Positions 50,927 through 51,124 of a DNA stretch of 64,000 nucleotides are shown here, in pieces. Source of the stretch: Sphyrna mokarran (lineage: Eukaryota); assembly GCA_024679065.1 (NCBI GenBank), contig JAGIQG010000004.1, forward strand, positions 35,278,001-35,342,000, in the 5' to 3' direction. The translations under genes and the position numbers were made by a program. Numbering within the stretch: the first letter of the stretch is position 1; each line of letters begins with the position of its first letter. The notes beneath the pieces were generated by a model that was given only the letters and a program-made list of their open reading frames with translations, searched no databases and had not been told where the DNA came from.

Positions 50927-51124
50927 GATGTAGAGATGCCGGCGTTGGACTGGGGTAAACTCAGTAAAGTTTCACAACACCAATTTTAAATCTAACCAAT
51001 ATGAGTGCTATTGCAGACCAGAACACTGCATTTGCCTGACGAAGGCACATAGTGTCGAAAGCTCGCGAATTTACTATCAAATAAATTGGTTGGATTTAAA
51101 ATTGGTGTTGTGAAACTTTACTGA
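50927..51124. mobile_element. Penelope family A fold-back element
   Basis: 34-nt tail 50927-50960; 40-bp inverted arms with 1 mismatch (50961-51000 / 51085-51124); 12-bp TSD cccaaccagcat (50915-50926 / 51125-51136). Confidence 0.85.
51030..51070 (+). ncRNA. Minimal type I hammerhead ribozyme motif
   Basis: Stem I AUUUGC/GCGAAU; core CUGACGA(A); stem II GGCAC-aua-GUGUC; GAAA; palindromic AGCU in place of stem III; predicted cleavage after C51064. Confidence 0.7.

Follow-up and report, generated by a model that had tools for sequence, protein, structure and literature searches.

The 64,000-nucleotide stretch of Sphyrna mokarran DNA analysed here (contig JAGIQG010000004.1, positions 35,278,001 to 35,342,000; hereafter the window, numbered from its first base) contains a 41-nt motif that resembles a complete hammerhead ribozyme, and this raises the question of whether the copy is a working catalyst or a relic of the element that delivered it. 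With high confidence, the motif can be assigned to a young Penelope-like family as its minimal hammerhead, left behind in a 198-bp truncated head-to-head insertion that is likely inert. The sections of evidence that lead to this answer concern the motif itself, the insertion that holds it, the family to which both belong, and the points at which sister cDNAs started and stopped.

Positions 51030-51070 on the forward strand supply the complete core of a minimal type I hammerhead (C3 U4 G5 A6 N7 G8 A9, G12 A13 A14, A15.1-U16.1 and H17). Stem I, formed by 51030-51035 and 51065-51070, comprises six pairs, one of them U-G, and opens onto the C3-A9 core at 51036-51042. An extra, bulged A at 51043 lies between positions 9 and 10.1 and is followed by stem II (51044-51048/51052-51056), which has five pairs including one G-U and a 3-nt loop. 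G12 to A15.1 occupy 51057-51060 and G15.2-C16.2-U16.1 occupy 51061-51063, a 4-nt palindrome at 51060-51063 replaces stem III, and C17 at 51064 places the predicted cut at 51064^51065. The pair G10.1-C11.1 and the palindromic 15.2-16.2 are those of the minimal hammerheads found in Penelope-like elements (PLEs). The original prediction had quoted these letters and read them as a complete catalytic core with pairing, G-U-containing stems I and II and a stem III reduced to a palindrome; checked letter by letter, that description is correct. Folded alone, the 41-mer forms both stems with pair probabilities of ~0.75, the outer pair of stem I reaching 0.46.

The core pattern alone identifies little. 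In its loose form it matches the window 14 times against a mean of 7.0 in shuffles, about twofold over chance, and by itself is weak evidence; the case for the motif therefore rests on the family, which carries the real support. The Rfam hammerhead models gave no match to the motif, at the gathering score or at E<=10, as would be expected of a motif that has no helix III. Rfam miRNA matches within the insertion were rejected, since they correspond to its fold-back, and searches of plasmid and phage databases gave no match.

Exact copies of the 41-mer number 117 in the 2.77-Gb genome (0 for the reversed control), and the exact downstream anchors of two subfamilies occur 1,037 and 3,921 times. 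To follow the core, we used 127 sister arms, all picked with an anchor that lies beyond the ribozyme and all of sufficient length to cover the motif. The core is intact in 102 of these, and 75 combine an intact core with at least four stem I pairs and at least three stem II pairs. U4, A13, A14, A15.1, C16.2 and U16.1 are invariant, the bulged A is kept in 125 arms and G10.1 in 126, and free position 7 and the loop of stem II are variable; core changes occur at G8 (8 arms) and G12 (15 arms), mostly as CpG-type G>A. In a set of 26 variants, which is biased towards structure because it was picked with a descriptor demanding core and pairing, 91% of cells are paired and 18 changes are double-sided, against 22-45% pairing in slid controls. 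A fairer covariation check comes from an older subfamily fetched by downstream sequence alone: read by eye, its stems II differ yet pair around the same core. Conservation of the core and of stem I and II pairing across the family, which had been proposed as a check on the motif, is thus borne out by invariant core bases and by compensatory stems in older subfamilies.

In these sequences selection on the master lineage can be seen: it has kept the fold, the stems of older subfamilies having changed in compensating ways while the core stayed constant. The window copy itself bears no sign of selection. Nor is the fold uniformly kept, several long copies having only two to four stem I pairs or a G-U at 10.1-11.1. 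The copies L120-L124, L126-L128 and L130 all have this G-U, some with only two stem I pairs, and keep the core; they may form a lineage whose ribozyme was already weakened when it spread.

The motif sits inside a 198-bp head-to-head insertion (50927-51124) flanked by a 12-bp target-site duplication, with its left copy at 50915-50926, where the last three bases also fit the end of the element's tail, and its right copy at 51125-51136. The inverted arm (50927-51001, reverse strand) consists of the 3' end of the pLTR plus a tail of ~36 nt and runs from about +96 relative to the cut, at the ORF start codon, to +20. It ends short of the ribozyme and repeats only the part downstream of the motif, together with the tail. 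The forward arm (51000-51124, forward strand) is the 3' part of the pLTR without the tail, from -65 to +59, and has exact matches elsewhere. Compared with the 5' pLTR of the long copy L111, the forward arm shows 0/125 mismatches; in the inverted arm 3/76 bases are unlike L111: one lies at the junction, one is a private base of L111 and one is internal.

These figures bear on the claim that the core of this copy had escaped decay. This copy is young, as its identity to L111 indicates, and among the unbiased sister arms an intact core is the norm; intactness here reflects youth rather than escape. The narrower statement that no other family copy in the window has an intact core is correct. Three related, older insertions are present: two are stubs that, by sequence comparison, end before the ribozyme (near 11022-11117 and 54351-54421), and the third, a head-to-head sister insertion at 34535-34901, has both hammerhead cores damaged by a CpG-type change (G8>A, G12>A).

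Other features of the window are unconnected with the family. Two inverted repeat pairs, at 58049-58366/59425-59740 (89% over 319 bp) and 6626-6738/6916-7031 (85% over 116 bp), are unrelated to it. Among 340 open stretches of at least 55 aa, none above the Pfam cut-off is a host exon, the sole match being a LINE-type reverse transcriptase fragment at 14497-14865 on the forward strand (RVT_1, E=3e-14). The locus might lie within a transcribed host intron, the missing Pfam exon being compatible with one.

Longer copies of the family continue upstream into an ORF with reverse transcriptase (RT) and GIY-YIG domains, which was read in sister copies and not in the window copy. In sister L031, RVT_1 is matched at E=1.4e-8 and GIY-YIG at E=2.1e-4, the latter with 21.9 bits, just below the Pfam cut-off of 22.6. 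The window stub is a truncated insertion product from the 3' end of this Penelope-like element. The linker between RT and endonuclease (EN) carries, in sister-copy translations, a CX4CxxC motif that fits the CX2-5CxxC linker named for Neptune (PMC8557442), and on this sole basis the family may belong to the Neptune clade. Long copies are laid out as pLTR-ORF-pLTR partial tandems. We fetched 20 of the 40 pLTR-ORF junction loci listed, and 13 of the 20 have two same-sense hammerheads, mostly ~3.0 kb apart. No active master was found, because the ORF is broken in all four of the long copies translated from the start codon (0/4 unbroken). L118 has two Penelope units 5.8 kb apart with the same unrelated sequence upstream of each, which we read as a tandem unit with a captured or replaced 5' part of the pLTR. 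Within the partial tandems L122, L124, L126, L128 and L130, one pLTR differs from the other, by eye, at subfamily-diagnostic sites; pLTRs of one insertion that differ at shared sites favour linear read-through from two pLTRs over unit circles.

The cDNA arms of the family have two starting points, one near +59 and the other near +95, and head-to-head insertions usually combine one of each. Arm 3' ends accordingly form two groups, 57-69 and 90-98 from the cut, plus one at 75. The tail ends at the ORF start codon.

If the family ribozyme cut a sizeable share of its templates in vivo, run-off cDNAs would leave insertions that start at position 0. We mapped arm 5' ends relative to the cut in the two subfamilies, sampled by downstream anchor (98 and 81 arms, covering nearly all of the first 100 of 1,037 and the first 71 of 3,921 anchor places), and kept 177 arms after dropping two duplicate junctions. 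Two contigs supply most of the sample, and related copies cannot be treated as independent; certainty is therefore overstated by the p-values given here. Of these arms, 161/177 read through the cut site, and none of 21 upstream pLTRs starts at it, three beginning at +10 to +23. Ends at 0..+4 do exceed the local rate (7/168 arms at risk, 0.83%/nt vs 0.18%/nt at +5..+33), and a search aimed at arms whose ends lie within -4 to +34, which found 220 (114 fetched, 112 of them with distinct junctions), yielded 20 inverted-junction short arms ending at -1..+4 vs 35 at +5..+33 (p=0.0005). This inverted-junction excess, however, falls on palindromes and on the stem I complement and is explained by microhomology. 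One arm joined to unique flank (L203, at the same place as L164) starts exactly at 0, but the excess among flank-joined short arms as a whole is not significant (7 vs 24, p=0.27), the ends lying anywhere from 0 to +19 without clustering at 0, and 0/81 arms of the second subfamily end at 0..+4. A cut-site footprint, suggested by the first 8/96 arms at 0..+4, was rejected on its failure in the flank-joined arms and in the second subfamily. Most templates copied into the genome were uncut at this site, those ending at the cut amount to a few per cent at most, and we consider sizeable cutting of templates in vivo unlikely.

Two recurrent features were noted among the short arms. Many separate places share one and the same inverted junction at +8 (L213, L406 and further loci), made through a 5-nt match of the stem II loop to the bases that follow the cut. 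Six of 33 flank-joined short arms lie directly behind the simple-repeat tail of another retroelement (L214, L343, L365, L373, L400 and L408), hinting at a target preference.

Arm 5' ends instead pile up at -54..-30, upstream of the cut. In the window this stretch corresponds to 51011-51035 on the forward strand and includes a predicted 5-bp hairpin at 51012-51030; the window copy's own forward arm extends 11 nt beyond it. Of the 177 arms, 52 end within the stretch, a rate of 1.48% per base among arms at risk and ~8 times that of the flanks (0.17% at -100..-55, 0.21% at -200..-101 and 0.18% at +5..+33; 52 ends vs 24 in the 146 bases upstream, p=3e-26). The pile-up is present in both subfamilies and, by eye, in a further, older subfamily, and includes 11/38 flank-joined arms (13/41 by script, a count that takes in the inverted partners L233 and both L262 arms). 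Short-start arms (24/79) and long-start arms (29/100) end in the same stretch, with medians of -40 and -37 (p=0.08). Distance from the start was therefore rejected as the cause: what matters is the position on the template, not the distance copied.

A spliced template was likewise considered and rejected. The long copy L111 has a 75-nt GT..AG stretch with a branch-like motif (L111:1306-1380) that ends at -44, 9 nt before stem I, and window positions 51000-51021 contain its 3' end. The branch-like motif is identical in 218/227 copies, and the length equals that of the 75-bp 5' intron of Drosophila Penelope (PMC2377424; PMC4209133). One exact pattern found no spliced copy in the genome, the fetched loci contain none, and the contigs of four runs contain no spliced joint. 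A second, weaker cluster of 5' ends lies at about -320..-255, near the ORF end, with 6/21 upstream pLTRs (L111-L113, L119, L120 and L129) and ~8/177 arms, the latter at -320..-296.

The candidate causes that remain are a transcription start, a stall at the hairpin (-53..-35) or at a bound protein and, for inverted pairs, microhomology from the stems. The plainer reading of the data is that -54..-30 is the element's transcription start; no cap-derived extra G was seen by eye at the flank junctions. A more speculative one, to which we attach a low probability, is that the pile-up is a footprint of the ribozyme region in the transposition complex. Two element RNAs held on a dimeric RT, possibly paired through their hammerhead palindromes, would be copied from both DNA ends, and copying would stall at one shared site that is structured or bound by protein. 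The main task of the hammerhead would then be to pair RNAs or to signal a stop, thereby fixing how long insertions become, and few templates would be cut.

Whatever the family does, the window copy could in principle, along the lines of the original prediction, act as a working ribozyme that cuts a forward-strand host transcript with an identical copy as its partner in trans. Its core and stems are intact, the exact copies elsewhere offer 117 identical potential partners, and the inverted arm stops short of the motif, so that the 40-bp fold-back leaves the motif in the loop. Family sequence is present in contigs of run X2, which is on record as RNA, and of run X1, which is guessed to be RNA; of the family's sequence words, the X2 and X3 contigs contain a small share and those of X4 none, and such contigs tell nothing of level, strand or RNA ends. 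The predicted folding argues the other way. For the insertion as for L111's native pLTR, ViennaRNA prefers a competing 5-bp hairpin at 51033-51047 (forward strand), sequestering C3/U4 together with the 5' strand of stem II, although the program ignores tertiary contacts of the core and may overrate this hairpin. In context, the predicted pair probabilities of stems I and II are <=0.01, and the active dimer lies at -16.7 vs -26.9 kcal/mol for the best dimer, a gap of ~10 kcal/mol. The locus shows no sign of transcription and the copy none of selection. The two strands of a double hammerhead are each cleaved by the other's core, and the 64-kb window contains no intact partner for the motif on the same strand. 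Published minimal hammerheads of PLEs are, as described in PMC4209133, inactive as monomers and weak as dimers, and the hammerhead of an Anolis PLE, in the experiments outlined in PMC11167929, cleaved only with the element's protein and was dispensable for insertion. Given the missing partner, the predicted hairpin and the inactivity of published monomers, self-cleavage of the lone window copy is doubtful; action in trans on a host transcript is very unlikely, and the stub is most likely inert.

The remaining alternative, that a unit-length circle (two cuts plus ligation) was copied to give the stub as a retrozyme-like non-autonomous element, can appeal to the derivation of animal retrozymes from PLE pLTRs (as presented in bioRxiv 10.64898/2026.07.22.740005) and to the circle model proposed for PLEs in PMC4209133; it is very unlikely, and largely refuted for this locus, given a single motif without a head-to-tail repeat, arm lengths that differ from copy to copy, and pLTRs that fit linear read-through in L122, L124, L126, L128 and L130 (those of L111, L113, L123 and L127 being non-discriminating). 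Non-LTR retrozymes are defined by at least two head-to-tail units, each with a hammerhead, and we found one motif in a head-to-head insertion. The description of the locus as a tiny Penelope-derived element accordingly holds for its origin in a Penelope pLTR, which the sister copies establish, and not for a small autonomous or retrozyme-like unit.

For a truncated insertion product of linear templates, the following course would account for the stub. Both ends of a staggered DNA cut would each prime a cDNA, one per start site; the forward cDNA would pass through the ribozyme to -65, the other would halt at +20, and the two would then be joined. On the model of published work, the ribozyme would cleave after C17 only as a palindrome-paired dimer in which either strand is cut by the opposite core, probably aided by the element's protein.

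Ribozyme and element are both of a known kind. The metazoan PLE minimal hammerheads described by Cervera and de la Pena (2014, PMC4209133) are likewise type I with a helix III consisting only of the 15.2-16.2 palindrome, have the extra nucleotide between 9 and 10.1 and the pair G10.1-C11.1, and lie in pLTRs. They too occur mostly as single dispersed copies, with some in tandem ~3 kb apart and some in opposite-strand pairs, and form many sequence families per genome. The comparison drawn at the outset with palindromic minimal hammerheads in PLE pLTRs is therefore apt, the motif matching the published type and sitting in a pLTR. Unlike those of Schistosoma, where stem II has 7-8 bp, the present motif has a stem II of 5 bp and a stem I of 6 bp. 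The family of this genome is unlisted in the main account of that paper; the small PLE-linked hammerheads of Lunse et al. (2016/2017), which cleave as dimers according to the summary in PMC6765202, may already include its relatives.

Similarities extend to insertion. Like PAc (Poseidon) of Anolis, as reported in the account of Frangieh et al. (2024, PMC11167929), the family has two internal RT start sites and an optional tail, and its main template is uncut RNA; for PAc, that account reports no RNA ends at the cut. Unlike the PAc ribozyme, which overlaps the ORF start, the hammerhead here is confined to the pLTR, its cut lying 94 nt short of the ORF start codon, and the RT-EN linker differs from that of PAc in its CX4CxxC motif (PMC11167929). 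In the EN+ PLEs described by Craig et al. (2021, PMC8557442) and by Arkhipova et al. (2013, PMC3846280), insertions are likewise truncated at the 5' end and joined through microhomology, with partial tandems, an inverted copy upstream, a tail of 30-40 bp at one end and a duplicated target. Those descriptions of layout do not mention a pile-up of 5' ends beside the hammerhead, and we found no account of one in a literature search that covered mostly titles and the openings of abstracts; the work of Lunse et al. may bear on it. The pile-up upstream of the motif is the one unusual observation on an otherwise familiar ribozyme and element.

A single motif of this kind is of little importance in itself, such ribozymes being known in thousands of copies in the genomes of fish, coelacanth and frog (as surveyed in PMC4209133), and PMC8557442 still describes as unclear what the hammerhead does in PLEs that carry an endonuclease. 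The value of the family lies in its thousands of young copies, which form a record of where reverse transcription started and stopped. The mostly uncut templates seen in that record agree with the in vitro result given for the Anolis element in PMC11167929, and the sharp, position-fixed stop zone just upstream of the ribozyme is a feature that any model of PLE insertion must explain.
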